Shown here: piece after piece, positions 9,448 to 25,658 of the stretch
Layout: each line of letters begins with the position of its first letter
Numbering within the stretch: position 1 is the stretch's first letter
NCBI GenBank assembly: GCA_005882895.1
Contig: VBBD01000007.1
Span: forward strand, 1 to 62,479
Origin: Candidatus Bathyarchaeota archaeon
GTDB lineage: Archaea; Thermoproteota; Bathyarchaeia; 40CM-2-53-6
Direction of reading: 5' to 3'
DNA: 62,479 nucleotides
Position numbers and translations under genes: made by a program
The notes under the pieces: generated by a model
Databases searched by the model: none
What the model was told of the DNA's origin: nothing
Seen by the model: only the letters and a program-made list of their open reading frames with translations

Positions 9448-9650
9448 ATCTTTCTCTCCTAAAAAATTGTAAGCCGCGGATCCGCGGAAAGCGACAAGAA
9501 CGCCTTCAACTGTTGAACCAGTAGGCACAGAAAAGTAGTTTGGCTGTGGGTATCCCGGTAGGAGAAGCGTAAGGTCCTCACACGAGCCTTTTTATAAAGA
9601 AACTAGGTGTTTTCTCTCTCCGTTTCGGGAAAGGAGTTTGAACTAAGACA

Positions 9651-10949: not shown

Positions 10950-11165
10950 CTCAACACCACAGTAACTGTCCAAGGTACTCTACGACTCCAAGAACGAGTC
11001 CACAGATCTTCTGTCTTGCTGGCATTGCCTCAAACGGTGTTCTTTGTTTGAAGAACGCCTGAATTCAATACCGCGGTTTCCGCGGGAGTTTACACCAAGG
11101 TTTTTAACAGCACCGGACCCGCCCTAGCCCTTCGCTACAAAGGTCGACAATGAAGGTGTCTTGGG

Positions 11166-11474
11166 TTGGTTTCCAAAGCTAGAATTCGCCTGTCCAGCAC
11201 TGACCCCCAGGACATCAATACAATTTGCACAGAAATACGCGACATCGCCGACAAGACAGGCGTCAAGCTGAAAGGACCCATACCGTTGCCAACCAAGAAG
11301 CTCATCGTCCCATCAAGAAAATCGCCAGCCGGACAAGGAACACACACGTTCGACAAGTGGGAGATGAGGATTCACAAACGCCTCATCGACGTGGACCCAA
11401 ACGAACGATTCTTGAAAAGACTGATGAGGATAAGAGCACCTGACGATGTTTTTATCGAAATAGAACTACTGTAG
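11166..11474 (+). CDS. rps10: 30S ribosomal protein S10
   Basis: [25 protein letters not shown]; follows tuf. Confidence 0.97.
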
Positions 11475-11477
11475 GGA

Positions 11478-13010
11478 CTACTTTCTCATTCGTCCGACAG
11501 AATTCGACTTTCGCTTTCGCGGCCGTCTTACGAATATTGCGAGGCTGCCAAGTACGATCATAGAGGCAAACCCGACGGTGACATATGACACGGACGAATC
11601 AACGACATTGACTCTTACAAAGACGTCGAGACTCACTTGCGAGTTGAATGCGGTCAGTGCTACATACCGCTGCCCTAGGGTCGCGTTCCAGGCAGCAAAA
11701 ATCGTAATGCTCGTAGAATAGGGAACGCTGGCTGGAACAATATCTGATTGAGAGGAGCTGTAGATCTGTGGAGGATAATAACCCGGGGCGTCCTGAGTCA
11801 CCGCCGACGAATTGAGCGAGAATTTTCCCTGGTCCGCTGAGTTGACAATAACCGATACCGGCCGGGACCCACCCCTCTGAATTACTACGTCAGGCAGCAC
11901 GCTGCCAAGGCTAATCGGGACCGGTACACTCGCGTTCACGTAACCTATCTGGCCCAGTGCCCAGGCGACGAACCAAACGAGATTATTCGGCCCTGGCATC
12001 GCCCACCACATCAACGGGATGGAACTTCCAGGGACCCAATACTCGGTAAGGACGCCGGTCAAGGGGTCATAACGAGCAATCCGCCCGGCAATGTGTTCCG
12101 AGAACCAGACCATGTTCTTTGCGTCGATAAAGATGGCATTAGGAAGCCCGTTGATGCAGTTGTCCGGACAATAACCAATCGGAAACACCTTCCAAACGTT
12201 TGTGAGCGGATTTAACACTCCAAATTGGTTGCTACCGTGATCAGTAAACCAGACGTTGCCAGAAGAGTCAACTGCGACCTGTATTGGTGCGGCCAGGTTC
12301 ACGTACGAAGGGGGAGAAAACTCATCGGGGACGGGAGAGACCTCAGGAACAAGACGACCAATTTTCTTAGACCCGGCCTCGGCAAACCATATTGTCTTCC
12401 CAGAGGGAGAAACGGTAATGCCTTGAACGATGGCCCCGCTCGTTCGAACCGGATAGGTCTGATTCAAGTGACTCAACGGGTCGTACATGGCAATACTACT
12501 CGCCCCAGATGAGCCCACCATGGACATCCATATTCGACCTTGAGTGTCATTCGCGAGGTACTGTAGGCTTTGGTCTGGAAAGGTAATCGCCTTTGTCTCG
12601 CTTGTTTGGTCCGTACTCGTGTCGTAGAAGGCCAGTGTCGAGTTCTCAGTGAACCAAACCTTCGTTGAAGGATTCACCGGATCGGCAAGAATCGAACTTA
12701 CGATCACGTTTGGGAGACTTATGACTCCTTTCGAGGTTCCATCGATGAAGAATTCTCTGATTTGGGAAGTAGGAGGATTCCCTGTGGCTATGCCGGCAAC
12801 CCAAATCGTTGAGCCTGTTGGATAGATGAGCCAAGGGCTCGGGCTTCCACTAGGGACCTTCGGCAGAAGAGTCACATATTGTTGAGCACTGGTCTGGAGG
12901 ACAAGGGCGGGCCCTGCGGCCTGGGGAGGATGAGTTAGCGCGTTACCTAATGCCGAGAGAGCAATAAGAATCAGGATTGGTCCGATCGAGTGTGATAATC
13001 GCATGATCAT
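11478..13010 (-). CDS. Secreted, C-terminally anchored Vgb(streptogramin lyase)-like beta-propeller
   Basis: Signal-like N-terminus; repeated VWFTE/IWFAE/VWFTD/VWFSE blades; C-terminal TM plus basic tail; ATG 13010 just after the cupredoxin stop. Confidence 0.75.
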   Translation of the reverse strand: MIMRLSHSIGPILILIALSALGNALTHPPQAAGPALVLQTSAQQYVTLLPKVPSGSPSPWLIYPTGSTIWVAGIATGNPPTSQIREFFIDGTSKGVISLPNVIVSSILADPVNPSTKVWFTENSTLAFYDTSTDQTSETKAITFPDQSLQYLANDTQGRIWMSMVGSSGASSIAMYDPLSHLNQTYPVRTSGAIVQGITVSPSGKTIWFAEAGSKKIGRLVPEVSPVPDEFSPPSYVNLAAPIQVAVDSSGNVWFTDHGSNQFGVLNPLTNVWKVFPIGYCPDNCINGLPNAIFIDAKNMVWFSEHIAGRIARYDPLTGVLTEYWVPGSSIPLMWWAMPGPNNLVWFVAWALGQIGYVNASVPVPISLGSVLPDVVIQRGGSRPVSVIVNSADQGKFSLNSSAVTQDAPGYYPPQIYSSSQSDIVPASVPYSTSITIFAAWNATLGQRYVALTAFNSQVSLDVFVRVNVVDSSVSYVTVGFASMIVLGSLAIFVRRPRKRKSNSVGRMRK

Positions 13011-13021
13011 CCTGGCGTTGC

Positions 13022-13447
13022 CTAGGTTACATTTAGGAGACCAGTCCGCATGAATTGGTGGACTGTGCAAACGCCGAGTGAGCAGTACATAGTGAACTGC
13101 CCTATTTTGGTCGCTTGGAATTTCAATGTCTGGGGGGGGCTTCCTCCGACAATTTCCAAGCCGCTGTTGGAGTAGTAAGTCACTGCGAACCCGTGAGCCT
13201 GTGTGTCGTTGTTAATTATGGTGATCTCAACCCTATCGCATTGGTGAACTGTGGTGACAGGCCAAGGACCAGTTTGAGACTTGCTCCCGTTGTACCCGTT
13301 TAGATCAGCAACAATCGTGATGGAGCGAGTGGCTCCACTCACACCCGAACAGGGAGATGGGGGAGGGCTGAGTACTACTGCGAACACTCCGCCTGCTGCG
13401 AGAGAAGTGGCAACGAGCGCGATTATGACCATCTCGCTAGTTCTCAA
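13022..13447 (-). CDS. Membrane-anchored cupredoxin-domain protein (CuA-like), copy 1
   Basis: N-terminal TM; NNDTQAHGF; GQFTMYCSLGVCTVHQFMRTGLL. Confidence 0.8.
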   Translation of the reverse strand: MRTSEMVIIALVATSLAAGGVFAVVLSPPPSPCSGVSGATRSITIVADLNGYNGSKSQTGPWPVTTVHQCDRVEITIINNDTQAHGFAVTYYSNSGLEIVGGSPPQTLKFQATKIGQFTMYCSLGVCTVHQFMRTGLLNVT

Positions 13448-13651
13448 CGATCACACCCAAGGTTCTCAGCCTGATATACGGCCCGGACTAGAAGTTTGGA
13501 GGAACCCCGCTAAATAGAGCCATGGTCAATACGTTCAACAGGACATTGGCCCGTAGAGCACAGGTACCAAAGGAACATGATCTGGCTCTCTAGGCTAAAG
13601 AGGACCATGAGCTCGAAAGGCTTAGCCTAGGCTACTTTTGAACCTGCCGGG

Positions 13652-14245
13652 CTATCCGTATGTTATGACTATGTTATCAGGCACACAGGGCTGGAATACG
13701 CAAAGAGCGGTAGAGGACGCTGCTTTGCGGGGGAAAACGTAATTTTGAAAGCTAGTGTCGGGATTGCCATTTACAGTCATGTTTAGGTGGTGTGTCCCGT
13801 CTACTTTGTGGTCGAAAATCTGAGTAGAGTTGAAGATAGCCGTAGTGGGATTGTTTGCCCAATGTCCCCAGAGAAGGAACCAGTCGCCAAGCGTGTAGTC
13901 TCTGTTTTGATCAGTTTCAATATGGAGGGTACCAGTCGCGTCATGGGTGTGAATCGGTTGCTGACATCCATTGTCGAATGTTCCAGGCGATGGGGGAAGG
14001 GCAAAGTTGGCCCCGTTTATGGAGATAGTCAAATTTGGGTGGGAGTGGTAGGCTTGACCCTCAACGCAATGGCTCAGATAGTCAGGCAGCGGTACAAGGT
14101 TCGGTGGCGGGCGCAAGAAGACGATGGCGACTACGATTACCGCAATGAGAATTATCGCAATAGCCAAGGTGGTTAGTGCTCTCTGTCGGCGTTTTCTCTT
14201 GACATCCCCGAGAATCTTCTGCTTTCGGGTCTGGGTCTGAGACAT
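13652..14245 (-). CDS. Membrane-anchored protein with HxH/HTHD/H motifs, putative metal-binding
   Basis: Basic N-terminus plus TM; YHSHPNLTISING, CQQPIHTHDATGTLHIE, YTLGDWF. Confidence 0.7.
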   Translation of the reverse strand: MSQTQTRKQKILGDVKRKRRQRALTTLAIAIILIAVIVVAIVFLRPPPNLVPLPDYLSHCVEGQAYHSHPNLTISINGANFALPPSPGTFDNGCQQPIHTHDATGTLHIETDQNRDYTLGDWFLLWGHWANNPTTAIFNSTQIFDHKVDGTHHLNMTVNGNPDTSFQNYVFPRKAASSTALCVFQPCVPDNIVITYG

Positions 14246-14395
14246 CGAGAGCGACCTATGCAGGAATTCGAGTGCGTTCGAGCAATAATATCTTTCCCGC
14301 GGAACTCGAAAAGAGAGAGGATAAGACCCTAAGACCTTCAGTCGAGATGGAGAGCCTTAAGACATATTTGAGAAGGCTGTCGAGGGGTTTCTCCT

Positions 14396-14577
14396 GCGGG
14401 GGTACCAGAGTCAGGTCAAATCATCTGACTAAATGGGCGGGTCGCGCCTAGCACGCGCGCGCTACACTCAAGACCCAATACCGCAAAGGCGTCGGAGCGA
14501 TTAATGCCTTGGCAAAACGCGGGTGTGCTATCCCGTGGCGTAGGCCTTCGTGGGTTCGAATCCCACCCCCCGCACCA
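14396..14577 (+). tRNA. tRNA-Leu(CAA) with three introns (21/22: 14420-14432; 30/31: 14442-14465; 37/38: 14473-14529), CCA encoded
   Basis: Acceptor GCGGGGG/CCCCCGC-A-CCA; T arm GTGGG-TTCGAAT-CCCAC; Leu-type variable arm; spliced anticodon arm CGGGA-CTCAAGA-TCCCG; each intron bounded by a 4-bp helix and 3-nt bulges. Confidence 0.92.
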
Positions 14578-14601
14578 ACTTATCATACTGTGATGGACAC
14601 A

Positions 14602-15459
14602 TCAAGGGTGAGCAGTCAGAATATCGGGGGTAGGGCTCGCTTTGACTTCTCTCCAGGTGAAGATCATTACGGGAATTATTACGCCTATCATGAACGCCAG
14701 AACTATCAGATTTCCAAAATCTAGGGGAATGATGTCTTGTATGCCAGTTCGGAAGAGTATCCCCGCAATGATGAATATTATGCCGCCGTAAAATAGACTG
14801 CGTGCCCCTGCTCTCGTTCCGAAGGTCTGGATTCTTTCGGGACCCCACTTCTTCGCGATTTGGAGGACGCCACCGAAGAGCGAACCAATTGCTAGCAACA
14901 CGATTAGTGTGCCAAAGCCGAATGCTGCCCCCGGTGCGAACCCAAGGTATGCAACAGGCATTGCTGGAACGGCGACCAAATAGATGAAAGTGGTGAACAG
15001 CCCAGTGTCCACGCCGAAGCCCGCGATGAACCCGTGGATTACGCACCAGTGTGTGGGAACCCGTCTTGAGGCGCCTTTCTCATCGTAATGCGTTTTAGCA
15101 TGAGTGCGCAGGAATCGAGCAAGGGGATGCCAAGACGGCAATTTCCCGGACAATATCAGATATCCCGCGAGGGACATGGCGATTCCGACAGCTACGTAGA
15201 CGAGTGCGTTCAAACCTTCGTCGAAGGCGAGATAACTAGCGAGCGCGAAGTAGACGAGCTGGGCCATAATTGCGCGTTGGAGTGTAAAGGCTGAGGCGAA
15301 GAACATGCCTGAGAGCATTCCTCCTCTCCCAGTAGCTGAACCCACTGAATAGCTGAAAGTGATAGGCCAAGTGTGTTCGTCTGGAATGACCCCGTGCAGC
15401 ATTCCGAGCCCCAGAGAGCCCAGCAAGAGAACGATCCATTCCGGGAGAAGAGGGATCAC
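14602..15459 (-). CDS. Ni/Co transporter-like membrane protein (NiCoT/RcnA/UreH superfamily)
   Basis: LGMLHGVIPDEHTWP TM1 motif, His-containing loop, IHGFIAG; divergent from nikR; GTG 15459 preferred start. Confidence 0.7.
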   Translation of the reverse strand: MIPLLPEWIVLLLGSLGLGMLHGVIPDEHTWPITFSYSVGSATGRGGMLSGMFFASAFTLQRAIMAQLVYFALASYLAFDEGLNALVYVAVGIAMSLAGYLILSGKLPSWHPLARFLRTHAKTHYDEKGASRRVPTHWCVIHGFIAGFGVDTGLFTTFIYLVAVPAMPVAYLGFAPGAAFGFGTLIVLLAIGSLFGGVLQIAKKWGPERIQTFGTRAGARSLFYGGIIFIIAGILFRTGIQDIIPLDFGNLIVLAFMIGVIIPVMIFTWREVKASPTPDILTAHP

Positions 15460-15481
15460 GGCACGAGAGATGGAGATGGAA

Positions 15482-15509
15482 TTATTAAGTATTTTCTGGA
15501 TTTTAATAA
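15482..15509. promoter_or_regulatory. Candidate NikR operator TTATTA-N16-TAATAA overlapping the permease TATA-like box
   Basis: Perfect inverted repeat with the 6-16-6 geometry of the E. coli NikR operator, between nikR and the permease. Confidence 0.6.
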
Positions 15510-15553
15510 CTCTAATATAAGCAGTCACCTGGAAATTATTATGGCACAGTCAA

Positions 15554-15940
15554 ATGCCCATCGTTAGCGTCTCGTTACCCGACGAACTAGTCGATTCCAT
15601 GACTGCGATTCAGGAATCCCAAGGATATGCCGGAAGATCTGACGTAGTCAGAGCTGCAATACGTCTCCTGCTATCTGACTCAAGAGAGAAAGCGTCACTC
15701 ACCGGCCGAGTAGCTGCAATTCTCGTGGTTACACATGATGAATCGAACGAAGAGCCAATCACTCGGTTGAAGCACGCTTACGATGACATTGTGCGAACCC
15801 ACATTCACAATAAAATGGGCCAAAACAACTGTTTCGAACTGTTTCTCCTAGAGGGAGAAGGAAGGAAGGTCGCTTCAATGACTAGTGCATTCCAGAAAGA
15901 GAAGAAGCTGAAAAGCGTCAGGCTTCTCGTGGTCCGATAG
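15554..15940 (+). CDS. nikR: Nickel-responsive regulator, NikR family
   Basis: N-terminal ribbon-helix-helix (IVSVSLP...GYAGRSDVVRAAIR) and metal-site residues H...HIH...C. Confidence 0.88.
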   Translation: MPIVSVSLPDELVDSMTAIQESQGYAGRSDVVRAAIRLLLSDSREKASLTGRVAAILVVTHDESNEEPITRLKHAYDDIVRTHIHNKMGQNNCFELFLLEGEGRKVASMTSAFQKEKKLKSVRLLVVR

Positions 15941-16074
15941 AGAGTTGACGAAGGGTTCAGAGGTACACAGCGAGACCATAGAATCTGAGATCTTTGGATC
16001 GATTTGAAACCCGACACTTTCATCGAAATGACCCGGCTTTGAATCGACGCGAGATTTGCAGTAGCGGTTAGATC

Positions 16075-16881
16075 TTAGCCTGAATGGAATAGAGCCGCGA
16101 AGTAGATCGTGAGGAGTCCAAGGGTTATGAGCACCGCCATCGTCATCGATTCCTTCGAGCTTGCAGGGTTCGCCTTGTTGAACATCGATCCAAAGAGCCT
16201 CACCGCGGCATAGATCGCCGTTCCGGTGCCCAGGGCGTAGAAGTAGCTGCTGTCGTAGGTTAGGTAATAGCCGCTGGCAGCGCCGATGAGCGAGGGAATC
16301 GCGAAGACTATGCTCAGAATTGCAAGGTCTCTCAGGCGACCTGTGGTATTCTTAGCGTGCTGGATAGAGTATGCGCAATAGCAAGCGCCTATTATCATAG
16401 GTTCAAGTGCCTTGTGCAGAACATATGCTACTCCGCCGGAAACGCCGCCGAATGTGTCCAGAAGCGACGTGCTTGTTGTCAGCGCAGCAGTTCCCCCGAA
16501 GGCTGCGCCCTCGCCGAGCCCGTGGACGCCTAATGCCGCTGCAACTAGCATCGGTATCGCCAAGCCATACTTTCCAATTGCTAACTCAGGCGAGAAGATA
16601 TTTCGATTACGATCAATTGAAAAGAAGAAGAGAAGGCCGATGGCAAAGAGTCCTACGATTGCAAGCTGACCTGCACCTCCAGAGAAACCCGAGTTGACAT
16701 CGAGGCTTGCTGCCCCGGTTATCGTGTCGACGAAAAACCAGAACAAAATCCCGAATGCAAATGCCGCAACGTATCTTGTCTGAAATTTCATTCCCACCAA
16801 CACAATAAGGGACAACCCTACAAACGCGGGAATCAGCGTCGACGCAGTCCACGGAAGGAAACTCTCAGCGAATCCCAGCAT
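16075..16881 (-). CDS. ZIP (GufA-like) divalent metal permease
   Basis: About 8 TM; GVHGLGEGAAFG and VLHKALEP match ZIP TM4/TM5 motifs; ATG 16881 fits a leaderless start. Confidence 0.7.
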   Translation of the reverse strand: MLGFAESFLPWTASTLIPAFVGLSLIVLVGMKFQTRYVAAFAFGILFWFFVDTITGAASLDVNSGFSGGAGQLAIVGLFAIGLLFFFSIDRNRNIFSPELAIGKYGLAIPMLVAAALGVHGLGEGAAFGGTAALTTSTSLLDTFGGVSGGVAYVLHKALEPMIIGACYCAYSIQHAKNTTGRLRDLAILSIVFAIPSLIGAASGYYLTYDSSYFYALGTGTAIYAAVRLFGSMFNKANPASSKESMTMAVLITLGLLTIYFAALFHSG

Positions 16882-16919
16882 GAGCAAGTGTCTCAAGCCT
16901 ATTGTTCTAAGGTTTTTTG

Positions 16920-16934
16920 GCTCAAGTTACGAAC
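16920..16934 (-). promoter_or_regulatory. Conserved motif GTTCG-N5-TGAGC abutting BRE/TATA-like elements of the ZIP gene
   Basis: Minus strand GTTCG TAACT TGAGC CAAAAAA CCTTAGAA. Confidence 0.65.
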
Positions 16935-16977
16935 AGGACAAAGAATATCCTTTGAGTGCGAGACTAACTAGCTTCTT

Positions 16978-16992
16978 GTTCGCAGTTTGAGC
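16978..16992 (+). promoter_or_regulatory. Conserved motif GTTCG-N5-TGAGC abutting BRE/TATA-like elements of the cupredoxin-2 operon
   Basis: GTTCG CAGTT TGAGC CATAACT TTCTTAAT. Confidence 0.65.
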
Positions 16993-17058
16993 CATAACTT
17001 TCTTAATCATCGGACGCCAGTCTGTACATTCCCATATTCGCAGCGTAGTTAGGTTTCC

Positions 17059-17601
17059 ATGCAACTTACCTTGCCGGTCCACTCGGAGACTAGTGGTAAC
17101 GGAAAATTAGCTGGGAGCTCAAGCGGGGAAGAGTCCGCGCGAACAAGACTTTTGCGACGGGTGCTGGTGATCGTACTCATCGTCGTGGTAGTCACCGGGT
17201 TTTTCGCTGCGGCGTATACGTTTCATTTCTTCGGTCTCGGGGCAACCAACTGTTGGGCCCGTCCCGCGAGCGTGCCGGCAAGCTCTGCCTACTTCGTCGT
17301 CGTGATGGCTAACGAAGGGATGAATGTCGGGTTCAACGGTAGCAAGTTCCAAAGCGGCTCTTGGCCTATAATGAATGTAACGCTGGGGAGAAACGTTACG
17401 ATTCATGTCATAAACAATGATACAATTCAGTCTCATGGATTTGCGATACAGAGCTACTTCAACGGTTTTGCGCTGGGTCCCGGCAAGTGTAGTGATGTGA
17501 CGTTTACAGCGGATCAACCTGGCTCGTTCTTGGTTTATTGCTACATTTCCTGCACAATCCATGTGTTCATGCAGAATGGGAAAGTTAACGTGAACCCTTG
17601 A
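17059..17601 (+). CDS. Membrane-anchored cupredoxin-domain protein (CuA-like), copy 2
   Basis: TM; NNDTIQSHGF; GSFLVYCYISCTIHVFMQNGKV. Confidence 0.82.
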   Translation: MQLTLPVHSETSGNGKLAGSSSGEESARTRLLRRVLVIVLIVVVVTGFFAAAYTFHFFGLGATNCWARPASVPASSAYFVVVMANEGMNVGFNGSKFQSGSWPIMNVTLGRNVTIHVINNDTIQSHGFAIQSYFNGFALGPGKCSDVTFTADQPGSFLVYCYISCTIHVFMQNGKVNVNP

Positions 17602-17604
17602 ACG

Positions 17605-17943
17605 ATGGAAGGAGCGACGTGGCTATCCATGTTTAACGTCACCGACGGGCTGGTGCATGTTCTCCTCGTGGCTTTCTCGGCCTTAGTCCTGTTGATCTCT
17701 CTGCTCGCGTACGTCGGTCGGAGAGACTCGAGGTATCTTTTTCTCTCGCTAGCTTTCGCCTTCCTCGCGCTTAGCCAAGTAGTCGAGCTAGTTGAGACCA
17801 TATTTTTGTCGAATCAGTTGATCTTCATTCCCCTAACAGGGGTACACTTGTCGCACTTTCTAGACTTCCTGATGCTGTCTAGCTTCAGCTTGGCCTTGCT
17901 TGTTCGAAATGGAGAGAGCCTTGGGAGTTCAGGGAAACAGTAG
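17605..17943 (+). CDS. Small 3-TM membrane protein co-transcribed with a wHTH regulator
   Basis: Hydrophobic helices with intramembrane His/Glu/Asp; overlaps the next gene. Confidence 0.7.
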   Translation: MEGATWLSMFNVTDGLVHVLLVAFSALVLLISLLAYVGRRDSRYLFLSLAFAFLALSQVVELVETIFLSNQLIFIPLTGVHLSHFLDFLMLSSFSLALLVRNGESLGSSGKQ

Positions 17944-18430
17944 GGTCAGGGTCAAGCAGCTTGTCTCGCTTGCCCCAGGCGTTCACCTAAGAGAACTCCA
18001 GCGACTCCTGGGCATGTCATTCAATTCTACACGGTACCATGTGGACAAGTTGACGACGGCCGGCGAAATTATCCGAGTAGAAGAAGGAGGGTATTCTCGG
18101 CTCTATCCCGCCGGGATCAGCGAAGCAGAAAGGGCCATTTTCACCCTTGTTCGCGGCGAGACGGATAGGAAGATCTTGGCGAGTCTAGTTGCTGACCCAA
18201 TCCTCTCAAACAAACAGCTATGCGAGCAAACAAACCTGGCGAAATCCACCGTCAGTGAACATCTAACGGGACTTGTGCGAGCGGGCATAGTCAAGACGCG
18301 ACAAGTGACCGAGAACTTTGTTGCATATGAACTGGAGCAACCTGATCAAATCCGATTCCTGTTGAGGAGCCAGAACCCGAGTATTCTCAAGAAGGCAAGT
18401 GACCGATTCATAGACCTGTGGGACTTCTGA
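17909..18430 (+). CDS. Tandem winged-HTH (ArsR-like) transcription regulator
   Basis: PGVHLRELQRLLGMSFNSTRYHVDKL and LSNKQLCEQTNLAKSTVSEHLTGL; C-terminal DRFIDLW. Confidence 0.85.
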   Translation: MERALGVQGNSRVRVKQLVSLAPGVHLRELQRLLGMSFNSTRYHVDKLTTAGEIIRVEEGGYSRLYPAGISEAERAIFTLVRGETDRKILASLVADPILSNKQLCEQTNLAKSTVSEHLTGLVRAGIVKTRQVTENFVAYELEQPDQIRFLLRSQNPSILKKASDRFIDLWDF

Positions 18431-18441
18431 GACGGCAGGGC

Positions 18442-20235
18442 ATGCGCTTGAAACTTCAGAACAAGCGACGCTTAGCTCTGACATTCGTCATTATCAGCTT
18501 TCTCTCACTATCTACAATAACCTTGGGACAGCCATACGGCCTTCTCAAAGCAACGGGAAGCAGTCTGGTCTCTCAACAACCCAGTTCCAGCTCTCCGATT
18601 ACAGAATTCCCTATACCTTACGCGAACCCCGGGCCGAATGCAATTGTCTCTGCCCCGAATCACATCTTCTGGTTCGTGGAATACAACACAGGCGAAATCG
18701 GCGAGTTCAACGAGACAGCAAAAACCTTCAGTCAAATTCCGATACTCGAGACAGGAGGGGCCATCCCGGCATCGTTGGCATTGGATGGTTTTGGCAGAAT
18801 CTGGTTTACTGATCAAAACAAGAATAATCCTAGTGTCTGGGTTCTCAATGCGTCCGCGTCTCCTGTAACGTTCCACCAATACTTGACGAACACGTCGAAT
18901 TCGACACCCGTCTTCGTCATCGTAGACAATAGCACCAACGACGTATGGTTCACTGACACAACCGCCAACAATATTGGAAAAATCGACCATCTGACAGGTC
19001 AAATTACAAAATTCACTCTTCCGACCTCGAACTCAGGCCCCGCTGAGCTTGCCCTCCAGAACGGTACGTCATACCTGTGGGTCACCGAAAGTTTTGCGAA
19101 CAAGGTTACCCGGTTTGATATGGCGTCTCACAATTTCCAGGAATTCACGCCCTCCGTCTCACTAGTTTCGCCGGTGGGGATCGCTGTCGACAAGAACGGG
19201 AACGTGTGGGTCTCGGAGCACGGTGCGAGTTCAATCGCGGAGTTGATCCCATCTAATTCGACCTTCAGAAAGTATCCGACCACCCAACCCTCAACCTACA
19301 AGACGACGGCTCCAGCAACAATCGCTATCGACAAGCAAGGCCGATTCTGGTTTGTCGAACACTTCGGAAACAGGGTCGGACGGCTAGACCCTGCGACCGG
19401 GATAATGGATGAGTTCGCTATTCCCACCTCGGGTCTTGCATACTCCCTCCGTAACGCACTGGACCCTAGTGGCAACTTCTGGTTCACAGAGTACACGGGG
19501 AACCAACTTGGAATGATCCCGTGGAACGCGACTTCCCCTATCGCTCCTAGCTCAATGCTAGCTCCTCTAACAATGAACGCCGGCCAAACAGTCACCTCGC
19601 AGATCTCCCTGTCAGGTACTACAGCGAGTTCCGTCACCGTCAACTTGAATGTCACAAGCACATTCACAACCTACGGCCAAACATCCGCGAGCGAGGTAGC
19701 GCTGTCAAACTACAGTCTCGTGCTCAACCCGAATCAAGCCAAGACTGTCACTCTCTCGATCACCCCGGATGGCAGCTTACCTTCCGGACTCTACACAGTG
19801 GGTATTGTCGCAACGGATGGGAAGACTTCGTCAGTTGGTGTTGTCTTTCTCCAAGTACACGGCACCTTCTCAATACTCAATCTTCTCCAAACCTACCTCC
19901 CGGCGATCCTAATCGCTGCCGCTTCGGTCTTGGTACTGACGAGCATCCTGATTAGAAGAGGGAGGGCAAGGTCGGCTCCGCTGGATTCGAACACTAAGCT
20001 TCCGCTCGGCACGATCATAGTCATCGGGACAATTCTAATCGTGCTTGCCGTACAAGCGATACCTCCTTCGACAGCCAAGTGTATAGGCCTTCCCCCGCCT
20101 CCACCGAACGGACAGCCAGCCGGGCCAGACTATATCGGGCTGGGCTTGGACATTGGATCTCTAGCCTTCTTTGTCGTGGTACTCTATTTGATACTAAAGA
20201 GCCGACGCAAGAACAAGCCTTCTAGTCCAGGGTAG
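18442..20235 (+). CDS. Secreted Vgb-like beta-propeller with multi-TM C-terminus
   Basis: Signal peptide; blades FWFVE/IWFTD/VWFTD/LWVTE/VWVSE/FWFVE/FWFTE; Ig-like region; three C-terminal hydrophobic segments. Confidence 0.8.
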   Translation: MRLKLQNKRRLALTFVIISFLSLSTITLGQPYGLLKATGSSLVSQQPSSSSPITEFPIPYANPGPNAIVSAPNHIFWFVEYNTGEIGEFNETAKTFSQIPILETGGAIPASLALDGFGRIWFTDQNKNNPSVWVLNASASPVTFHQYLTNTSNSTPVFVIVDNSTNDVWFTDTTANNIGKIDHLTGQITKFTLPTSNSGPAELALQNGTSYLWVTESFANKVTRFDMASHNFQEFTPSVSLVSPVGIAVDKNGNVWVSEHGASSIAELIPSNSTFRKYPTTQPSTYKTTAPATIAIDKQGRFWFVEHFGNRVGRLDPATGIMDEFAIPTSGLAYSLRNALDPSGNFWFTEYTGNQLGMIPWNATSPIAPSSMLAPLTMNAGQTVTSQISLSGTTASSVTVNLNVTSTFTTYGQTSASEVALSNYSLVLNPNQAKTVTLSITPDGSLPSGLYTVGIVATDGKTSSVGVVFLQVHGTFSILNLLQTYLPAILIAAASVLVLTSILIRRGRARSAPLDSNTKLPLGTIIVIGTILIVLAVQAIPPSTAKCIGLPPPPPNGQPAGPDYIGLGLDIGSLAFFVVVLYLILKSRRKNKPSSPG

Positions 20236-20240
20236 CCGCG

Positions 20241-21008
20241 CTAGAGTTTCGAGTACCAGATGTAACAGATTGTTCCCAGCAAGGCAAAGGCGAGTGAGGG
20301 TCCGGCTAGGATCAATATCGATCCTAGGGAATCGCCAGCTGGGACTTGTGCAAAAGAAATGGGCGACAGTTGCCGGAACGCCTGAATAGCCCAGGTCATG
20401 GGGTTTGACGCTACTATTGGGGCTAGGACACGAGGAAACACGCTCACTGGATAGAACAATGCGCTGAGGAAGGACAGGTAGAGCTGGATTGCGCTTCTGA
20501 CGGTGACCCACATTTCTATGCTCGAAGAGAACGCGGAGATAGCCATGGAAAGTCCGACTATTCCCAGCGAGAAGAGACCTACTATCAAATAGGCTACGAA
20601 AATCTTTTGAGTAAAAAGTATCCCATAGAGGTAGCATATGACAAGGGTCCCAGGGAAGGTCGCTATCACGCTTCTAACGACTCCGCCTAAGACCCTTGAG
20701 AAAGCGAGAATCGGCCTCTGCACCGGAAGGGTCAGAAGGTACGATGTTAGGTCTTTGATGTACTTCTCACGCCATACATCTCTGCCGGACTGGAATGCGG
20801 CAACCATCGCCGTTATGAGGTTCGATCCGGGCGCGATGAAGAGGAAGTAGTTCTCGCCTTGGCCGGTAACGAGTCGGCCGAAAGTCGCGGCTGTCACAAA
20901 GAGGTCGATCGCAAAGTTTGCGAACATTATCGCGACAAGAAACGCGTCGGAGAAGAGGATCCGAACGTCTCGCTCGATGATCAGCGGGATGAGTCGCGTA
21001 TTGCTCAA
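20241..21008 (-). CDS. ABC-2 type exporter permease
   Basis: YFLFIAPG, LSALFYPVSVFP, NPMTWAIQAFR. Confidence 0.88.
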   Translation of the reverse strand: MSNTRLIPLIIERDVRILFSDAFLVAIMFANFAIDLFVTAATFGRLVTGQGENYFLFIAPGSNLITAMVAAFQSGRDVWREKYIKDLTSYLLTLPVQRPILAFSRVLGGVVRSVIATFPGTLVICYLYGILFTQKIFVAYLIVGLFSLGIVGLSMAISAFSSSIEMWVTVRSAIQLYLSFLSALFYPVSVFPRVLAPIVASNPMTWAIQAFRQLSPISFAQVPAGDSLGSILILAGPSLAFALLGTICYIWYSKL

Positions 21009-21817
21009 CCGTAGATTCCTCCTTCCAGACGGCGGAAATAGAACGCGGCGCCCAACCCAAGGAAGATTACGACGAACGCTACCAGCCCCGCGATCGCGGG
21101 AATGTCCAGAGTGAACCCGACAAGAGAATTACGCGCAGTGTCAGCGGCAAACGAAACCGGCGAGAAAGGGGCGAACAACGAGACATAGAACGGCATGAAA
21201 GCGATTGGGTAGAGAGCCGTGCTTCCCCTCGACACTGCGAGCTCAAGGAGGGCAAGAACCACGTCAAATCTGTTAGCGCTCTTCACGCTCACGGCCACGG
21301 TTATCGACATGCCAGTAACGCCGAAGGCCAGGAGGAAGAGCGATACGAGAGCTGTTAGGATCGAGAGCGGTTGGTTGAACCCCCAAACGAAGGCGACGAT
21401 GACAAACATTGGTATGGTGTAGATTATGGCTCTCATCGCTCCGCCGAGCGCTCTTCCAATGATGAACTGCCGTCTTGCGATTGGAAGCGTTAGCAGATAA
21501 TCGAGTACTCCCTCTTCCGCTTCTTCGAAGATGTCGTAGCCGATGACAAACGAGATGGAAGCGATCGTCGCTACTACGCTCCCAACGGCGTAGTACTCGA
21601 AGAAATTGAGCCCCGGAATATGGATGAGTCCGCTAATGAGGAACGCAAAGACAAAGAGCTGTATGATGAAGGCCAGACTTCGGGTTATGATGATCCAAGG
21701 GGTCCTGAAGAGGACCGATACATCTCTGAGAGCCATCTGAAGGATGAGATGCGTGGGTGATTCTGCGGCTATGGTTGTCTTACTCGAGCCGTTGGCCGGT
21801 GTATGTGAGGAAGACAT
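21005..21817 (-). CDS. ABC-2 type exporter permease
   Basis: EAEEGVLDYLLTLPI, STALYPIAFMP, PVSFAADTAR; start uncertain. Confidence 0.85.
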   Translation of the reverse strand: MSSSHTPANGSSKTTIAAESPTHLILQMALRDVSVLFRTPWIIITRSLAFIIQLFVFAFLISGLIHIPGLNFFEYYAVGSVVATIASISFVIGYDIFEEAEEGVLDYLLTLPIARRQFIIGRALGGAMRAIIYTIPMFVIVAFVWGFNQPLSILTALVSLFLLAFGVTGMSITVAVSVKSANRFDVVLALLELAVSRGSTALYPIAFMPFYVSLFAPFSPVSFAADTARNSLVGFTLDIPAIAGLVAFVVIFLGLGAAFYFRRLEGGIYG

Positions 21818-22715
21818 CTTCCAGACTGACCTCCTTCAGTTTGACGCTTTCGATCTTGAACCCTTGAGTGCTCAGGGTGTCGACTATCTTTGGAAGAAGA
21901 AGTGTGCCTGAGTTAAGGAAGACCAGGATCCTGTTGTCCTGTTTCTTGACATCATGTACCTCTGGGAACTTGGTCAACATGTCGGGTCTGAATTCGGATC
22001 CATCGTTCAGTGTAAGCTCTAACACTTCTCCGCCCTTTACGGTTCCCTTCAACTGTTCCGGGGTTTCACTGGCAACCAGCTTGCCCTTGTTGACTATCGC
22101 AACTCTCTCGGAGAGACGCTCAGCCTCGTCCATCATGTTCGTGGCTACAATGACGGTCGAGCCCTCGTCCCTCAGTTGGCGTATCATCTTCCAGACCAAC
22201 AATCTGCTCGGGACGTCGAGGAAGGCGGTAGGTTCGTCGAAGACCGCTATGCTCGGCCGCTGAACCAGTATCTTCGCATCCTCCACTTTCTTCTTCATAC
22301 CTCCACTCATCAGCCAGGTCCGCTTCTTACGTGCCTCCCAAAGGTCGAGAGCTTTCAGGACGTCTTCCACGCGACGTCGGCGCTCGTCTTTGTCAAAGGT
22401 CGTGGTCATCTTGAGGTGCCAGTTCAACACCTCGAACCCACTCAGGATTCCGTCCACCCGTGGATCCTGGAAAGCGATTCCGATAAGTCTCCTAACCTCG
22501 TTAGGCTGCTTCACAACATCAAAACCGTTGACTGTTATCGTCCCGCTCGTGGGGCGATAGACCGTTCCCATCATAAGCATCAGAGTGGTCTTTCCAGCAC
22601 CGTTCGGACCGAGAAGCCCTAGAATCTCTCCATCCTTGATTGTAATGGAGAAGTCTTTGACAGCGTCAAGATCGCCAAATCGTTTTCCAGTTCTCTCAAA
22701 CGTTATCATTGACAA
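21780..22715 (-). CDS. ABC exporter ATP-binding protein (DrrA/NodI-like)
   Basis: GPNGAGKTT, MSGGMKKK, VFDEPT, SLEDVFL. Confidence 0.93.
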   Translation of the reverse strand: MSMITFERTGKRFGDLDAVKDFSITIKDGEILGLLGPNGAGKTTLMLMMGTVYRPTSGTITVNGFDVVKQPNEVRRLIGIAFQDPRVDGILSGFEVLNWHLKMTTTFDKDERRRRVEDVLKALDLWEARKKRTWLMSGGMKKKVEDAKILVQRPSIAVFDEPTAFLDVPSRLLVWKMIRQLRDEGSTVIVATNMMDEAERLSERVAIVNKGKLVASETPEQLKGTVKGGEVLELTLNDGSEFRPDMLTKFPEVHDVKKQDNRILVFLNSGTLLLPKIVDTLSTQGFKIESVKLKEVSLEDVFLTYTGQRLE

Positions 22716-22847
22716 TTAATCCTGGATTGTGAGATCGCAGGGAACACCTGTATGCAGTTCGCTCAGCGAATCGGAGCGAAGCCGGATAAAAACCCGCGAC
22801 CCGTCTACGCACGCTTTTGAAGAGGCCCAGAGCAAGGCCCTTCCAAG

Positions 22848-23420
22848 ATGGACTTCGCGAGAACGGTTCTAACCCGTAAAATGATCCGAGCCTTCAAACC
22901 AGACCCCGTGCCCAAAGACAAGATAGAGCGGATTCTCTCCATCGCCCAACACTATCCCAGTGCCGGATACAGCCAGGAGGTCGCGTTCATCGTCGTCACC
23001 GACAAAGAGAGACGAAAGAGGATAAGGGAGCTAAGGGATCTGAGAAGCGACGCCCCTGTCCTATTGATACCATGCGTCAGCGAGAAGGTGGTCCATGATC
23101 GCTATCATGAACCTGACAAGATCCGCTCGGGAGGAAGAGAAATCGACTGGCCTGTCCCGTTCTGGTACTTCGACGTCGGATGCAGTTGTATGCTAGTATT
23201 CCTGGCAGCCGTAAACGAGGGGCTTGCAGCGTCTTTCGCCGGCAGCGTTGGAATCTTCAAACCTGGAATTCTGAGAAAGGAGCTTGGGATTCCAGAGCAT
23301 TATGAGCCTGTCGGTGTTCTATCGCTGGGTTACCCAGATCATACTAGTGACGTTCCTTCGCCATCGCTGAAACGTGGAAGGCGACCCTTCAGGGATTTTG
23401 TCCACGACGACAAGTGGTGA
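22848..23420 (+). CDS. Nitroreductase family protein
   Basis: RKMIRAF, YPSAGYSQ, LAAVNEGL, LSLGYP. Confidence 0.9.
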   Translation: MDFARTVLTRKMIRAFKPDPVPKDKIERILSIAQHYPSAGYSQEVAFIVVTDKERRKRIRELRDLRSDAPVLLIPCVSEKVVHDRYHEPDKIRSGGREIDWPVPFWYFDVGCSCMLVFLAAVNEGLAASFAGSVGIFKPGILRKELGIPEHYEPVGVLSLGYPDHTSDVPSPSLKRGRRPFRDFVHDDKW

Positions 23421-23463
23421 TTGCAGAACTCAAGTGTCGACGCGAACCGATACTTTGCGTCGA

Positions 23464-23952
23464 CTAATTTACGTCTAGTTCTGCTTTTTCGAAGACATAG
23501 ATCGTCGTAAAGATGGGTTCATAGATTTGGAATTTACCTGTTGTTGTCGCCTGGAACCTGACTGACTTGGTCTCGCCAATGTGAGCAATTATTCCGTTAG
23601 GCGTGTAAAACTGAACAGCTAACCCGTGGGCTTGTGTAGAATCATTGTTGATGATGCGCAAGACAACGACCTCCCCTTTCTGAACACTCATGACAGGAAG
23701 TGATTGATGAACACTGTCGTTGTATCCGATTGAACCAGCCACGATTGTGAAACAATGAGTGTTCCCGGCAGTGACGCACGGTGTGATGGCGGTTGAAGGA
23801 ATATAGATTACAAAGAAGTAGGTCGCGACGGACGATACGACCATTATGATCACAACTATGATCGCCACTATGTTAGCAAGGGTACTCTTGTCAAGTCGAA
23901 GCGTAAATGTTTGCCTCTGAGATGCATCTGCCCGAGTTTGCAGATCCGCCAA
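23464..23952 (-). CDS. Cupredoxin-like paralog, copy 3, C-terminal metal ligands lost
   Basis: TM; NNDSTQAHGL; ligand loop reads GKFQIYEPIFTTIYVFE; start may be CTG 23943. Confidence 0.72.
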   Translation of the reverse strand: MADLQTRADASQRQTFTLRLDKSTLANIVAIIVVIIMVVSSVATYFFVIYIPSTAITPCVTAGNTHCFTIVAGSIGYNDSVHQSLPVMSVQKGEVVVLRIINNDSTQAHGLAVQFYTPNGIIAHIGETKSVRFQATTTGKFQIYEPIFTTIYVFEKAELDVN

Positions 23953-23978
23953 GGGGTAGTTACGATTTAAGAGCTATG

Positions 23979-23993
23979 GCTCAACATGCGAAC
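23979..23993 (-). promoter_or_regulatory. Conserved motif GTTCG-N5-TGAGC abutting BRE/TATA-like elements of cupredoxin-3
   Basis: Minus strand GTTCG CATGT TGAGC CATAGCT CTTAAATC. Confidence 0.65.
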
Positions 23994-24073: not shown

Positions 24074-24826
24074 TTAGGATTGGAGCAGTGAGTCCACGGA
24101 CCGATTAAGGTTAGTGTTTCGCAAATCGTAGTATAGTCTTCTGTTCGTTTTTCCTTTGTTCTCCAGCTTCAGCAGTTGGATCTGTCCGATCTCTTTGAGA
24201 TGGGACACGTGTAGTCCTCCGTCGGCTTGTCGGTCTATGCCTTCGATTTCGACGATTCTAAGCTGGGCTTCAGCTGGTGGTGCGGCTTCTGCAAGTTTCA
24301 CCATGTCCGGGAGCTTGAGGGCTTCTTCCCGTTTCAAAAAGTACGTTTTGATCGGCGCATCTTTTCTGATCAATTCATTCGCTTCTGCAACGTATCCTTC
24401 GATCTGGGTCCGGTCGAACGATTCCAAGTTGAAGTCCATTCTAGACCGGTCCACGTCGATCTGATTCCCTGTTATTCGGCAGTTGGCCCTCGAATAGAAC
24501 AGGGAGCTGAGAAGGTGGCCGGCCGTATGCATCTTCATCAGTGTATGTCGTCTTTCCCAATCGACCTGTCCCGTCACTTTGTCTCCGACCTTCAAAGATG
24601 CGGGGGATTCCAGCGTGTGAAGTATGTTGTCGTCAGCTTTTGTCGTCTCTTGGACCTTTGACGCGTTTAGGGTCCCGGTGTCGCAAGCTACACCGCCACC
24701 TCGTGGGTAGAAGAGTGTCTGGTCCAGAACAACCCCCTGCCCCTCGACCGAAACTACCTTCCCGATGAAGTCATTGGAATACGGCTCTTCCCAGTATAGC
24801 TTCCTCGTAATGGATAATCTCCCCAA
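24074..24826 (-). CDS. alaXM: Alanyl-tRNA editing protein AlaX-M
   Basis: LDQTLFYPRGGG, MKMHTAGHLLS, DRQADGGLHV, KGKTNRRL; start TTG 24826 or ATT 24811. Confidence 0.9.
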   Translation of the reverse strand: MGRLSITRKLYWEEPYSNDFIGKVVSVEGQGVVLDQTLFYPRGGGVACDTGTLNASKVQETTKADDNILHTLESPASLKVGDKVTGQVDWERRHTLMKMHTAGHLLSSLFYSRANCRITGNQIDVDRSRMDFNLESFDRTQIEGYVAEANELIRKDAPIKTYFLKREEALKLPDMVKLAEAAPPAEAQLRIVEIEGIDRQADGGLHVSHLKEIGQIQLLKLENKGKTNRRLYYDLRNTNLNRSVDSLLQS

Positions 24827-24830
24827 ACTA

Positions 24831-25658
24831 CTATCGTACAACAGATGGCCTTACGATTACTGCCTCTTTCGTACTCTTCGACTGGTTGTATACTTCCTGG
24901 GCTTCCCTTACAGTCGCGCCTCCGTGCACTATCTCTCGAATTGCTCTGATCATTGGCACCGGGTGATCGGACTGCCAGATGTTCCGACCCATGTCAACTC
25001 CTACGGCTCCCTCTTGAATCGCGTCGTAGGCGAGTTGAAACGCGTCCAGCTCTGTCTCCAGCTTGGGTCCTCCAGCGACAACCAAAGGCACTGGACAGCC
25101 CTTGACAACTTTTCCAAAATCCTCGCAATAGTAGGTCTTGACAAAATGGGCACCCAGCTCTGCGGCGATTCTACAAGCCAGTGCAAGATAGCGCGCGTCT
25201 CGTTTCTCCAGCTCCTTGCCCACCGCCGTAACGGCGAGAACCGGAATACCATGTTCCTCGCCCTCATTCACAAGCCTGCCAAGGTTCGTCAAGGTCTGAT
25301 GCTCGTGAGCAGACCCCACAAAGATCGAAAGGGCCATCGCCGCAACGTTCAGCCGAACAGCATCGCTCACAGAGGTTGTGATAGCTTCGTTAGTCAGAGA
25401 ATCCCCAATAATGCTAGCTCCACCTGAAACCCGGAGCAAAATAGGCACGTTGGATCTCGGGTCAATAGATGTCCGGAGTACTCCACGGGTGCACATTATC
25501 CCGTCCGAGTACGCGAGGAGAGGCTCGATCGTTTTCCGAGGCTCTTCCAGCTTGTGCGTGGGACCCATGAAGTAGCCATGGTCCACCGCAAGCATTACAG
25601 TTCTTCCCGTTTCAGGTTTGATTATTCTTGAAAGCCGGTTTTTCATTCCCCAGTCCAC
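24831..25658 (-). CDS. lsrF: Class I aldolase of the LsrF/DhnA family
   Basis: MDWGMKNRLSRII, MLAVDHGYFMGPT, ELGAHFVKTYYC, AGGPK, GVDMGRNIWQ. Confidence 0.85.
   Translation of the reverse strand: MDWGMKNRLSRIIKPETGRTVMLAVDHGYFMGPTHKLEEPRKTIEPLLAYSDGIMCTRGVLRTSIDPRSNVPILLRVSGGASIIGDSLTNEAITTSVSDAVRLNVAAMALSIFVGSAHEHQTLTNLGRLVNEGEEHGIPVLAVTAVGKELEKRDARYLALACRIAAELGAHFVKTYYCEDFGKVVKGCPVPLVVAGGPKLETELDAFQLAYDAIQEGAVGVDMGRNIWQSDHPVPMIRAIREIVHGGATVREAQEVYNQSKSTKEAVIVRPSVVR

Follow-up and report, generated by a model that had tools for sequence, protein, structure and literature searches.

A soil Bathyarchaeon gene island of cupredoxins, β-propellers and a divergent ZIP permease as a candidate system for extracytoplasmic copper acquisition

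Why would a soil archaeon encode three cupredoxins and two anchored β-propellers next to a permease and several regulators? The question is raised by positions 11478–23993 of a 62,479-nucleotide stretch of Candidatus Bathyarchaeota DNA, hereafter the window, which is contig C83 of a 1.97 Mb genome (G000; 92 contigs, 86.6% complete). The closest named relatives are soil metagenome-assembled genomes (MAGs), and the stretch is present, whole or in part, in soil-metagenome runs of 16 studies, among them one run from which this DNA may have come. An initial annotation, made from the sequence alone, had proposed an extracytoplasmic copper or metal system at this island. The proposal now has comparative support from the linkage of the genes in other genomes, from CopC-CopD fusions and from multicopper oxidase-ZIP pairs, and as an interpretation it is partly supported. 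We give an even chance to the reading that the island is an extracytoplasmic copper acquisition and trafficking system of an aerobic soil Bathyarchaeon. In the following, fetched loci carry L numbers, g1 and f1 are the genus and family of the window, g4 is a sister genus and f38 is an ammonia-oxidiser-like family with small complete genomes.

Two oppositely oriented modules form the core of the island, each with a cupredoxin gene upstream of a propeller gene, in the order initially claimed. Module 1, on the reverse strand, consists of cupA (13022–13447) and, after a gap of just 11–17 nucleotides, propA (11478–13010), which encodes a Vgb-lyase/NHL-type β-propeller. Module 2, on the forward strand, comprises in order cupB (17059–17601), the gene of a DUF7471-like small membrane protein (17605–17943), that of a double winged helix-turn-helix (wHTH) regulator (17900–18430) and propB (18418–20235), again a Vgb-lyase/NHL-type propeller. 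Divergent from cupB lies the gene of a divergent ZIP-family permease (16075–16896, reverse strand). A third cupredoxin gene, cupC, is found at 23464–23952 on the reverse strand. All three cupredoxins have a single N-terminal transmembrane segment in a hydrophobicity scan, which also detects the membrane segments of the propellers, in agreement with the anchoring originally assigned to both.

The cupredoxins carry an unusual ligand loop. In cupA, the ligands H85, C122, C127, H130 and M133 form C-x4-C-x2-H-x2-M, with C33 and C70 as additional cysteines, whereas cupB, which is 44% identical to cupA, has C-x3-C-x2-H-x2-M (YCYISCTIHVFM). The family pattern is H...C-x3-C-x2-H-x2-M, from which cupA departs by its x4 between the cysteines; in the alignment every sequence has H85 and M133, and at least 90% of the sequences keep C122, C127 and H130. 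The proteins fall below the Pfam Cupredoxin_1 cut-off (cupA 18 versus 27 bits). Against PDB sequences the family profile retrieved NirK-type type-1 (T1) domains, nitrosocyanin and NosZ CuA domains (E = 2.5e-9 to 6e-7), and the NCBIfam matches were nitrosocyanin and the C-terminal CuA domain of NosZ. The canonical CuA ligand pattern is H...C-x3-C-x3-H-x2-M, as in the loop of the genome's own CoxII (CFELCGTGHVGM). The island's domains had been called CuA-like, a name that is only approximate, because the spacing from second Cys to His is one residue short of the canonical loop. H85, C127, H130 and M133 give a type-1 ligand set, C-x2-H-x2-M, in a family whose profile is homologous to solved T1 domains and nitrosocyanin, and judged from the sequence the site fits type-1 as well as it fits CuA. 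A word-indexed search (E ≤ 0.001) returned 112 cupredoxin homologs, 50–100% identical except for the four weakest and all from metagenomes or Bathyarchaeota MAGs, some of which one source labels 'nitrous oxide reductase' or 'oxidase subunit 2'. In a sample of the class, the profile matched 67 of 401 genomes, including 49 of the 58 in f1, and gave only weak matches elsewhere.

To see which genes accompany the cupredoxins outside g1, we fetched the surroundings of all 27 matches with E ≤ 1e-20, which represent 26 loci, and scored their open reading frames (ORFs) with local hidden Markov models. The census omits weaker cupredoxin matches (genus g3 and other families) and 72 Vgb matches outside the match list, for which reason it was based on fetched DNA. 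A ZIP-like gene lay within 3 kb of the cupredoxin gene in 14 of the 26 loci and within 7 kb in two more; a Vgb propeller lay within 3 kb in 11. One or both of these partners were present in 21 of the 26, and the linkage thus reaches beyond the genus. Ten loci had the ZIP gene alone, with no propeller, and NikR-like genes occurred in five. Orientation and order vary, the loci being operonic, divergent or convergent. Locus L052 of genus g2, for instance, reads cupredoxin, wHTH, DUF7471, cupredoxin, ZIP, propB-like and propA-like, an order other than that of the window. A tree of the cupredoxins mixes ZIP-linked with propeller-linked genes inside the g4 clades. The ZIP-like permease, which the initial annotation had overlooked as a partner, is at least as constant a companion of the cupredoxins as the propeller.

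Could this recurrence reflect no system at all, with fast-evolving surface proteins and unrelated metal genes kept together by shared ancestry? Within g1 this could suffice. Five relatives (L009–L013) keep the order cupA-propA-S10-EF1A, with the gene of a His-motif protein, HisP, upstream in L009–L012 (L013 begins too near cupA to reveal it), and L014 repeats module 2 gene for gene. Across positions 8320–13447, identity between the window and L009–L013 is 95–99% for EF1A, 97–99% for S10, 52–75% for propA and 59–70% for cupA; HisP, where present, is 38–80% identical. Because EF1A is 95–99% identical among these relatives, synteny in g1 proves little by itself and could be inheritance alone; the loci, moreover, come from one family, and the low identities of propA and cupA are what would be expected of surface proteins. 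The pattern shows that the surface parts evolve fast and suggests diversifying or relaxed selection on exposed proteins. However, the adjacency survives rearrangement and reorientation across g1, g2, g4 and g5, and by a rough estimate (at most 13 Vgb matches per genome of at least 1.3 Mb) fewer than about 8% of genes would have a Vgb match no more than 3 kb away by chance, versus 11 of 26 observed. The adjacency of cupredoxin and propeller clearly exceeds this rough estimate. Together with the CopC-CopD fusions and the ammonia-oxidiser parallel described below, this makes a mere neighbourhood by descent quite improbable.

Both propellers belong to the Vgb_lyase family (PF24684), with propA at 70.5 bits (1.4e-19) and propB at 143.5 bits (7.9e-42) for a cut-off of 50. 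The transmembrane scan gives propA (510 amino acids) a signal-like N-terminus, the propeller, an Ig-like stalk, one C-terminal membrane segment and a basic tail; propB (605 amino acids, 23% identical to propA) has an N-terminal anchor or signal segment, the propeller, an Ig-like stalk and three C-terminal membrane segments. The longest propA ORF extends to 13070, and orthologs begin at MRLS, near 13004–13010. The propA family profile matched the solved Vgb lyase 2z2n (4.4e-36) and NHL-type propellers such as the PknD sensor domain. Residues invariant in propA include E211, H258, C281, C285, E305 and H306. Two histidines are common to all propeller clades aligned, in the motif W-[FV]-x-[DE]-H of consecutive blades (WVSEH and WFVEH in propB), and several glutamates are conserved across the clades as well; these residues may form a metal site. 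One source labels the propellers 'streptogramin lyase'. Against the NCBIfam Vgb models propA reached 43.6–43.9 bits and propB 104.6–108.3 bits versus a cut-off of 600, and a streptogramin lyase function is unlikely because the propellers are membrane-anchored and predicted to face outward. The outward orientation of the cupredoxin, HisP and propeller domains is predicted from the basic residues on the cytoplasmic side of their anchors. Two further propellers of G000, a 720-residue NHL-repeat protein on contig C19 (L007:505–2664) and a 918-residue YNCE-like propeller on contig C15 (L107:2426–5179), have no cupredoxin or ZIP gene nearby in the fetched stretches.

The combination of a propeller with a CuA-like cupredoxin invites comparison with nitrous oxide reductase. 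In a split NosZ-like enzyme, the cupredoxin would be the CuA domain, the propeller the catalytic domain and the adjacent ABC-2 exporter the counterpart of NosFY. The cupredoxins do match the C-terminal CuA part of NosZ and L-NosZ (cupB against the NCBIfam model of the NosZ C-terminal CuA domain at 1.1e-11, far below its cut-off), propB matches the N-terminal part of L-NosZ at 1.8e-4, and one source names homologs 'nitrous oxide reductase'. However, scores against the L-NosZ model (NF052460) are 15–21 bits versus a cut-off of 700, and the same model matches nine of 14 control genomes. The propellers have two invariant histidines where CuZ requires seven, the CuA loop is longer by one residue between Cys and His, the exporter is DrrAB-like, and a search of the genome (86.6% complete) for NosD found none. 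Nor does a CuA site find its catalytic partner in the island: as initially stated, the window has no oxidase subunit I or NosZ, and the genome's sole COX1, that of its haem-copper oxidase, sits on contig C43 with its own CoxII. With NosZ or L-NosZ membership unsupported and NosD not found, we reject a split NosZ as extremely improbable.

A tie between this propeller family and copper proteins comes from the sister genus g4, where four of four tested ORFs of 931–938 amino acids fuse CopC, CopD and Vgb_lyase in one chain (L046:3268–6069 and L109:2022–4835 on the forward strand, L108:3882–6674 and L110:6651–9449 on the reverse strand). The order of parts is signal peptide, CopC (mature N-terminus HANL..., DGHH motif), CopD, Ig-like domain, propeller and C-terminal anchor, and the Pfam scores are well above cut-off for CopC (74–78 versus 23.3 bits) and CopD (71–78 versus 32.1 bits). 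A ZIP-like gene is found no more than about 1 kb from each fusion, and that of L110 is broken into two adjacent ORF fragments; L046 additionally carries DUF7471, wHTH and cupredoxin genes, and L110 carries DUF7471. The fusions hold the cluster context that propB holds in the window. With a query that covered the junction of CopD and propeller, full-length matches came from nine of the 23 genomes of g4 and from the one of g5; any match elsewhere among the 401 genomes was confined to the propeller part. No description of a CopC-CopD-propeller fusion was found in the literature searched, supplementary files being outside the search. In locus L048 (G325), a cupredoxin gene is spread over two frames (5436–5919) and a CopCD-propeller gene over four ORFs (8217–11036), possibly pseudogenes or assembly errors. 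A second propeller class of 942–972 amino acids, with an N-terminal propeller, showed no CopCD in five of five ORFs tested and lies outside these clusters.

The permease beside cupB is divergent enough to have no match of its own in Pfam (E ≤ 10, noise aside), NCBIfam or PDB sequences; it stays below the Pfam Zip (PF02535) cut-off, and a profile search of its family against PDB sequences also returned nothing. Its fold and its relatives place it nevertheless. The AlphaFold2 model has a predicted local distance difference test (pLDDT) score of 94.8 and a predicted template modelling (pTM) score of 0.92, and BbZIP entries fill Foldseek ranks 1–10 (probability 1.00, E = 1.4e-4 to 1.9e-2, template modelling score 0.43–0.59), a ZIP fold. 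A profile search among 1.84 billion representatives gave 505 relatives; Pfam Zip is matched by 13 of 50 aligned full-length relatives, at best with 2.3e-16, and the closest relative outside the family, L065, reaches 60.1 bits versus a cut-off of 35.1. On the strength of the modelled fold and of transitive homology through these Zip-matching relatives, we accept 16075–16896 as a divergent ZIP-family permease, as first called. ZIP proteins carry metal motifs of the types H-N-x-x-E/D-G and H-E-x-x-x-E on two central helices. In the close family (alignment A3), D57, H125-G-x-G-E129-G130, H161-K-x-x-E165 and H271 are invariant; in a wider alignment of 50 sequences (A5), D57, H125 and E165 remain so and the other motif residues are at least 90% conserved. 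The window protein reads H125-G-L-G-E129-G and H161-K-A-L-E165, which are candidate counterparts of the two ZIP motifs. A protein atlas led to a 'Znc transporter' and to a cluster with Zip in 13% of members.

Homologs of this permease have a copper-protein partner elsewhere in the phylum. In a phylum-wide sample, the A3 profile matched 38 of 56 f38 genomes (E = 1e-11 to 5e-21), and in all 28 fetched f38 loci (L066–L093) the ZIP homolog is directly preceded by the gene of a two-domain multicopper oxidase, an arrangement known from ammonia-oxidising archaea as the MCO1-permease pair. PMC7785015 reports that copper limitation upregulates MCO1 and the adjacent permease, and its authors proposed copper uptake. 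In f38, the oxidase gene overlaps the start of the ZIP gene, and the ZIP protein, of about 390–430 amino acids, has an extra N-terminal domain of about 150 amino acids outside any Pfam family. Locus L078 also encodes, just downstream, a NikR homolog with 39% identity to that of the window. The window's genome also has its own use for copper: contig C43 (3404–8334) carries a haem-copper oxidase operon with an 820-residue CoxI/III fusion, a canonical CoxII and a plastocyanin-like gene, with Nuo genes nearby, and the window's Bathyarchaeon is probably an aerobe.

The CopC-CopD fusions, the multicopper oxidase-ZIP parallel and the genome's need for copper together point to copper as the metal handled by the island. 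The cupredoxins would bind copper outside the membrane and would feed the ZIP permease in one of two roles, that of a metallochaperone or that of a one-electron Cu(II)/Cu(I) relay. Upstream of them, the propellers would serve as a module at the cell surface, capturing or releasing copper itself or a complex of it, and expression would probably be set by the wHTH and/or NikR-type regulators through an element of the cup promoters. ZIP and CopD are importers. We favour uptake as the direction because of this family knowledge, and because the haem-copper oxidase creates a need for copper in a genome (86.6% complete) where searches for CopC and CopD found neither; this result also places the island itself outside the CopC-CopD type.

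The same cupredoxins and propellers could instead form a redox module, with the propeller as a surface oxidoreductase and the cupredoxin as the carrier of single electrons that connects it to the aerobic respiratory chain. Models for such a module are amicyanin with methylamine dehydrogenase and azurin with propeller dehydrogenases. H...C-x2-H-x2-M is a ligand set of electron-transfer type-1 sites, of the kind known from the amicyanin loop, cupA and propA are separated by only the 11–17 nucleotides given above, the genome has both a haem-copper oxidase and a plastocyanin-like protein, and the two histidines and several glutamates found in all propeller clades could form an active site. However, no redox cofactor is known for Vgb/NHL/SGL propellers, nor do genes for one occur nearby; ten of the 26 cupredoxin loci pair with ZIP alone, and the CopC-CopD fusion indicates copper traffic, not electron traffic. 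We regard a redox module as a minority possibility. The initial annotation had the cupredoxin deliver copper or electrons to the propeller, and this delivery stays conjectural: a complex prediction of propA (residues 36–480) with cupA (31–141), run with separate alignments, scored 0.02 versus a mark of 0.32 and counts neither way.

The copper acquisition reading draws in several neighbours with less defined roles. HisP (13652–14245, reverse strand), the His-motif surface protein of the initial annotation, is a real gene product: a type-II membrane-anchored protein with an invariant P-x-H-T-H-D-x2-G-x2-H-x-E motif and an invariant W-G. The order HisP-cupA-propA is kept in L009–L012, L051 and L060. 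It belongs to no Pfam or NCBIfam family, and none of its 292 homologs is named. Its AlphaFold2 model (pLDDT 85.6) had no Foldseek match at E ≤ 0.001, and its profile retrieved nothing among PDB sequences; weak VIA matches (Z 5.6 and 5.5) to 3u7z, a 'putative metal binding protein', and to a transcobalamin beta domain were below the tool's meaningful level, and the protein atlas gave unnamed archaeal clusters alone. HisP is a candidate extracytoplasmic metal binder. Some HisP paralogs, such as L009:4307–4924 (reverse strand) and L051:5482–6087 (forward strand), have a cytoplasmic N-terminal C-x2-C...H-x4-H before the anchor that resembles a C2H2 zinc finger.

Upstream of HisP, a multi-transmembrane protein without an assigned Pfam or NCBIfam family (14602–15528, reverse strand) is transcribed divergently from the NikR gene. 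It contains H-x4-D-x-H (HGVIPDEH), is 91–93% identical in L009, L012 and L014, and probably starts near 15468, as do its 288-residue orthologs. The initial annotation had made it a Ni/Co permease, a call that was not confirmed: neither NicO nor DsbD_2 matches it, the sole NicO match of the genome (PF03824, E ≤ 1) being on another contig (C6:9687–10541) and PF13386 having none. The NikR-family ribbon-helix-helix metalloregulator (15554–15940, forward strand), by contrast, is present as announced, with NikR_C (PF08753) at 49 versus 22 bits (7.2e-13) and RHH_1 (PF01402) at 24.3 versus 20.5 bits (2.9e-5); the NCBIfam NikR models stay below their cut-offs (for example, 71 versus 111). The high-affinity nickel site of NikR consists of H, H-x-H and C. 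In alignment with Pyrococcus NikR (2bj1, 4.6e-11) the first His and the Cys coincide, and H-x-H lies seven residues before the Cys versus five in 2bj1. This ligand spacing is altered, and the metal of the window's NikR is therefore uncertain.

In module 2, the membrane protein/wHTH pair pointed out initially was recovered. The DUF7471-like protein has three transmembrane segments and matches Pfam DUF7471 at 4.7e-5 (23.8 bits, below the cut-off of 27), and it occurs together with the wHTH in L014, L046, L048 and L052. The wHTH is of the HVO_0163 type, with HTH_HVO_0163_N at 3e-13 and HTH_24 at 1.1e-15 (Pfam, above cut-off); an NCBIfam ArsR/SmtB metalloregulator model matched at 2.2e-11, with 43.4 bits short of its cut-off of 55. 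We regard this protein as a candidate for regulating the island.

Downstream of propB, on the reverse strand, lies the ABC-2 exporter, confirmed at 20241–22715 with permease genes at 20241–21008 and 21005–21817 and an ATPase gene at 21780–22715. It matches ABC_tran, DrrA1-3_C and ABC2_membrane in Pfam and, below the cut-offs, drrA (4.1e-81) and drrB in NCBIfam, and is of the DrrAB type. Its membership in the system is uncertain: near cupredoxin genes in other genera, ABC genes are inconsistent and of low identity (24–40%). In a rival reading, the purpose of the island would be detoxification of copper or another metal, with cupredoxins and HisP sequestering the excess at the surface, the exporter removing it and ZIP serving another metal. 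CopC and CopD were originally named resistance proteins, two metalloregulator-type factors accompany the exporter, and soil, the source of the runs mentioned at the outset, is the habitat. This explanation is weakened by the absence from the island of a P-type ATPase, CusF/CBA or CopA-type oxidase and by the inconsistency of the ABC neighbours, and ZIP and CopD, as importers, would work in the opposite direction. We consider it unlikely.

Of the remaining genes, a nitroreductase-family gene (22848–23420, forward strand) separates the exporter from cupC. The island is flanked by the ribosomal protein S10 gene (11166–11474) on the propA side and by an AlaX-like gene (24074–24841) beyond cupC.

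A common DNA element links the cup promoters. It spans 22 nucleotides, is near-identical at cupB (16978–16999, forward strand; GTTCGCAGTTTGAGCCATAACT, then the TATA-like TTCTTAATC) and at cupC (23972–23993, reverse strand; GTTCGCATGTTGAGCCATAGCT, then the TATA-like CTTAAATCG), has arms that are 86% complementary and lies directly upstream of the TATA-like box. The initial statement that three promoters share one motif is right for these two; cupA carries only an indel variant (13518–13539, reverse strand; TTGACCATGGCT / GTTGAACGTATTGACCATGGCT, then the TATA-like CTCTATTTAG). Related variants precede the cupA orthologs in L011, L012 and L013 and were not seen before those in L009 and L010, and the element is conserved before the cupB orthologs of L014 and, slightly changed, of L052 in genus g2. 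Its 13-nucleotide core has two matches in the window versus 0.36 expected, a number reached by four of 100 shuffles. Genome-wide, with up to two mismatches, the core occurs at chance level (39 matches versus 32–41 in five shuffles), and look-alikes on contigs C13 and C42 have no clear downstream gene; we dropped the element as a genome-wide regulon marker. We regard it as an operator or promoter element common to the cup paralogs, possibly bound by the wHTH.

Several observations weigh against copper acquisition as the function of the island. Copper specificity would follow from association, and ZIP proteins usually carry zinc, iron or manganese; nor do the neighbouring NikR and the ABC-2 exporter indicate copper in particular. 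The window propellers are not fused to CopCD, and a FastTree phylogeny, weak at its deep nodes, does not group the CopCD-fused clade specifically with propA or propB. The propellers have just two invariant histidines, and the characterised members of their family are Mg-dependent lyases. The third cupredoxin paralog announced by the initial annotation exists, with cupC matching cupA at 4.5e-15, and it lacks the copper ligands: the H is kept (HGL), and C, C, H and M have become E, T, Y and E, a loss of four of five ligand positions. Five of the 26 cupredoxin loci have neither partner, although three of these are cut by contig ends, and the counted loci are relatives within one family and not independent. 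Finally, the shared promoter element is confined to the genus, apart from the near-copy in L052, and could be a relic of duplication.

How archaea acquire copper is largely unknown, and the sole prior genomic lead is the MCO1-ZIP pair of ammonia oxidisers together with CopCD (PMC7785015). If the island acquires copper, it carries the logic of a permease with a copper protein to aerobic soil Bathyarchaeia with different parts, namely a single-domain cupredoxin whose two-Cys loop is unusual, a ZIP branch that Pfam misses and Vgb propellers, the last joined to CopC-CopD in a sister genus. It would also offer a candidate ZIP for copper transport and candidate proteins for a copper chaperone or relay, and it suggests a first physiological role for the many propellers labelled 'streptogramin lyase' by one source. 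A bolder version, which we hold only tentatively, is that Vgb/NHL surface propellers are a new extracytoplasmic copper-handling class that makes up, with the cupredoxin subfamily and the divergent ZIP, an undescribed archaeal pathway of copper uptake. Doubtful to a similar degree is its finer picture, in which the parts are separate proteins in one genus, the propeller is fused to CopC-CopD in the sister genus and the cupredoxin site is possibly a shortened, binuclear CuA-like one. In the literature searched we found no description of this cluster, of the shortened-loop cupredoxin subfamily or of the Pfam-invisible ZIP branch; supplements were outside the search, and more neighbourhoods of this kind may appear in the supplements of PMC7785015 and of its reference 9. 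The labels 'nitrous oxide reductase' and 'streptogramin lyase' (P0003, P0005, P0390 and others) are probably wrong, and both could inflate nitrogen-cycle and resistome gene counts in soil surveys.

Among the known systems close to the island is the MCO1-ZIP pair (PMC7785015), which likewise encodes an extracytoplasmic protein of the cupredoxin superfamily beside a ZIP permease. The ZIP proteins of the two are homologous, and both lineages occur in the same phylum sample. However, the partner in the window is a single-domain anchored cupredoxin and not a two-domain oxidase, which sets the island apart from the MCO1-ZIP type; lacking a two-domain oxidase with a trinuclear O2-reducing site, the window cupredoxin cannot alone oxidise Cu(I) with O2. 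Conversely, the ammonia-oxidiser ZIP has its additional N-terminal domain of about 150 amino acids, and propellers, HisP and the wHTH pair are absent from that system.

The copper import and homeostasis proteins CopC-CopD (YcnJ type) also couple a copper-binding extracytoplasmic β-sandwich to a membrane permease; the window instead has a ZIP-fold permease and, as binder, a cupredoxin whose ligands include Cys. With NosZ and its lactonase-type clade III, L-NosZ (cited in PMC13477213), the island shares a propeller and a two-Cys/two-His/Met cupredoxin. In the window these are separate genes, with scores far below cut-off and two versus seven histidines. The Vgb lyase belongs to the same propeller family, PF24684, but is a soluble cytoplasmic protein of about 300 amino acids (chains of 299–300), unlike the anchored window propellers of 510–605. 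On the level of design, Fet3p-Ftr1p and EfeUOB follow the same logic, in that an extracytoplasmic cupredoxin-type protein changes or holds a metal for an adjacent permease. Both use other permease families and another metal, and the island has no O2-reducing copper cluster. For ammonia-oxidising archaea, the same parallel is drawn in PMC7785015.

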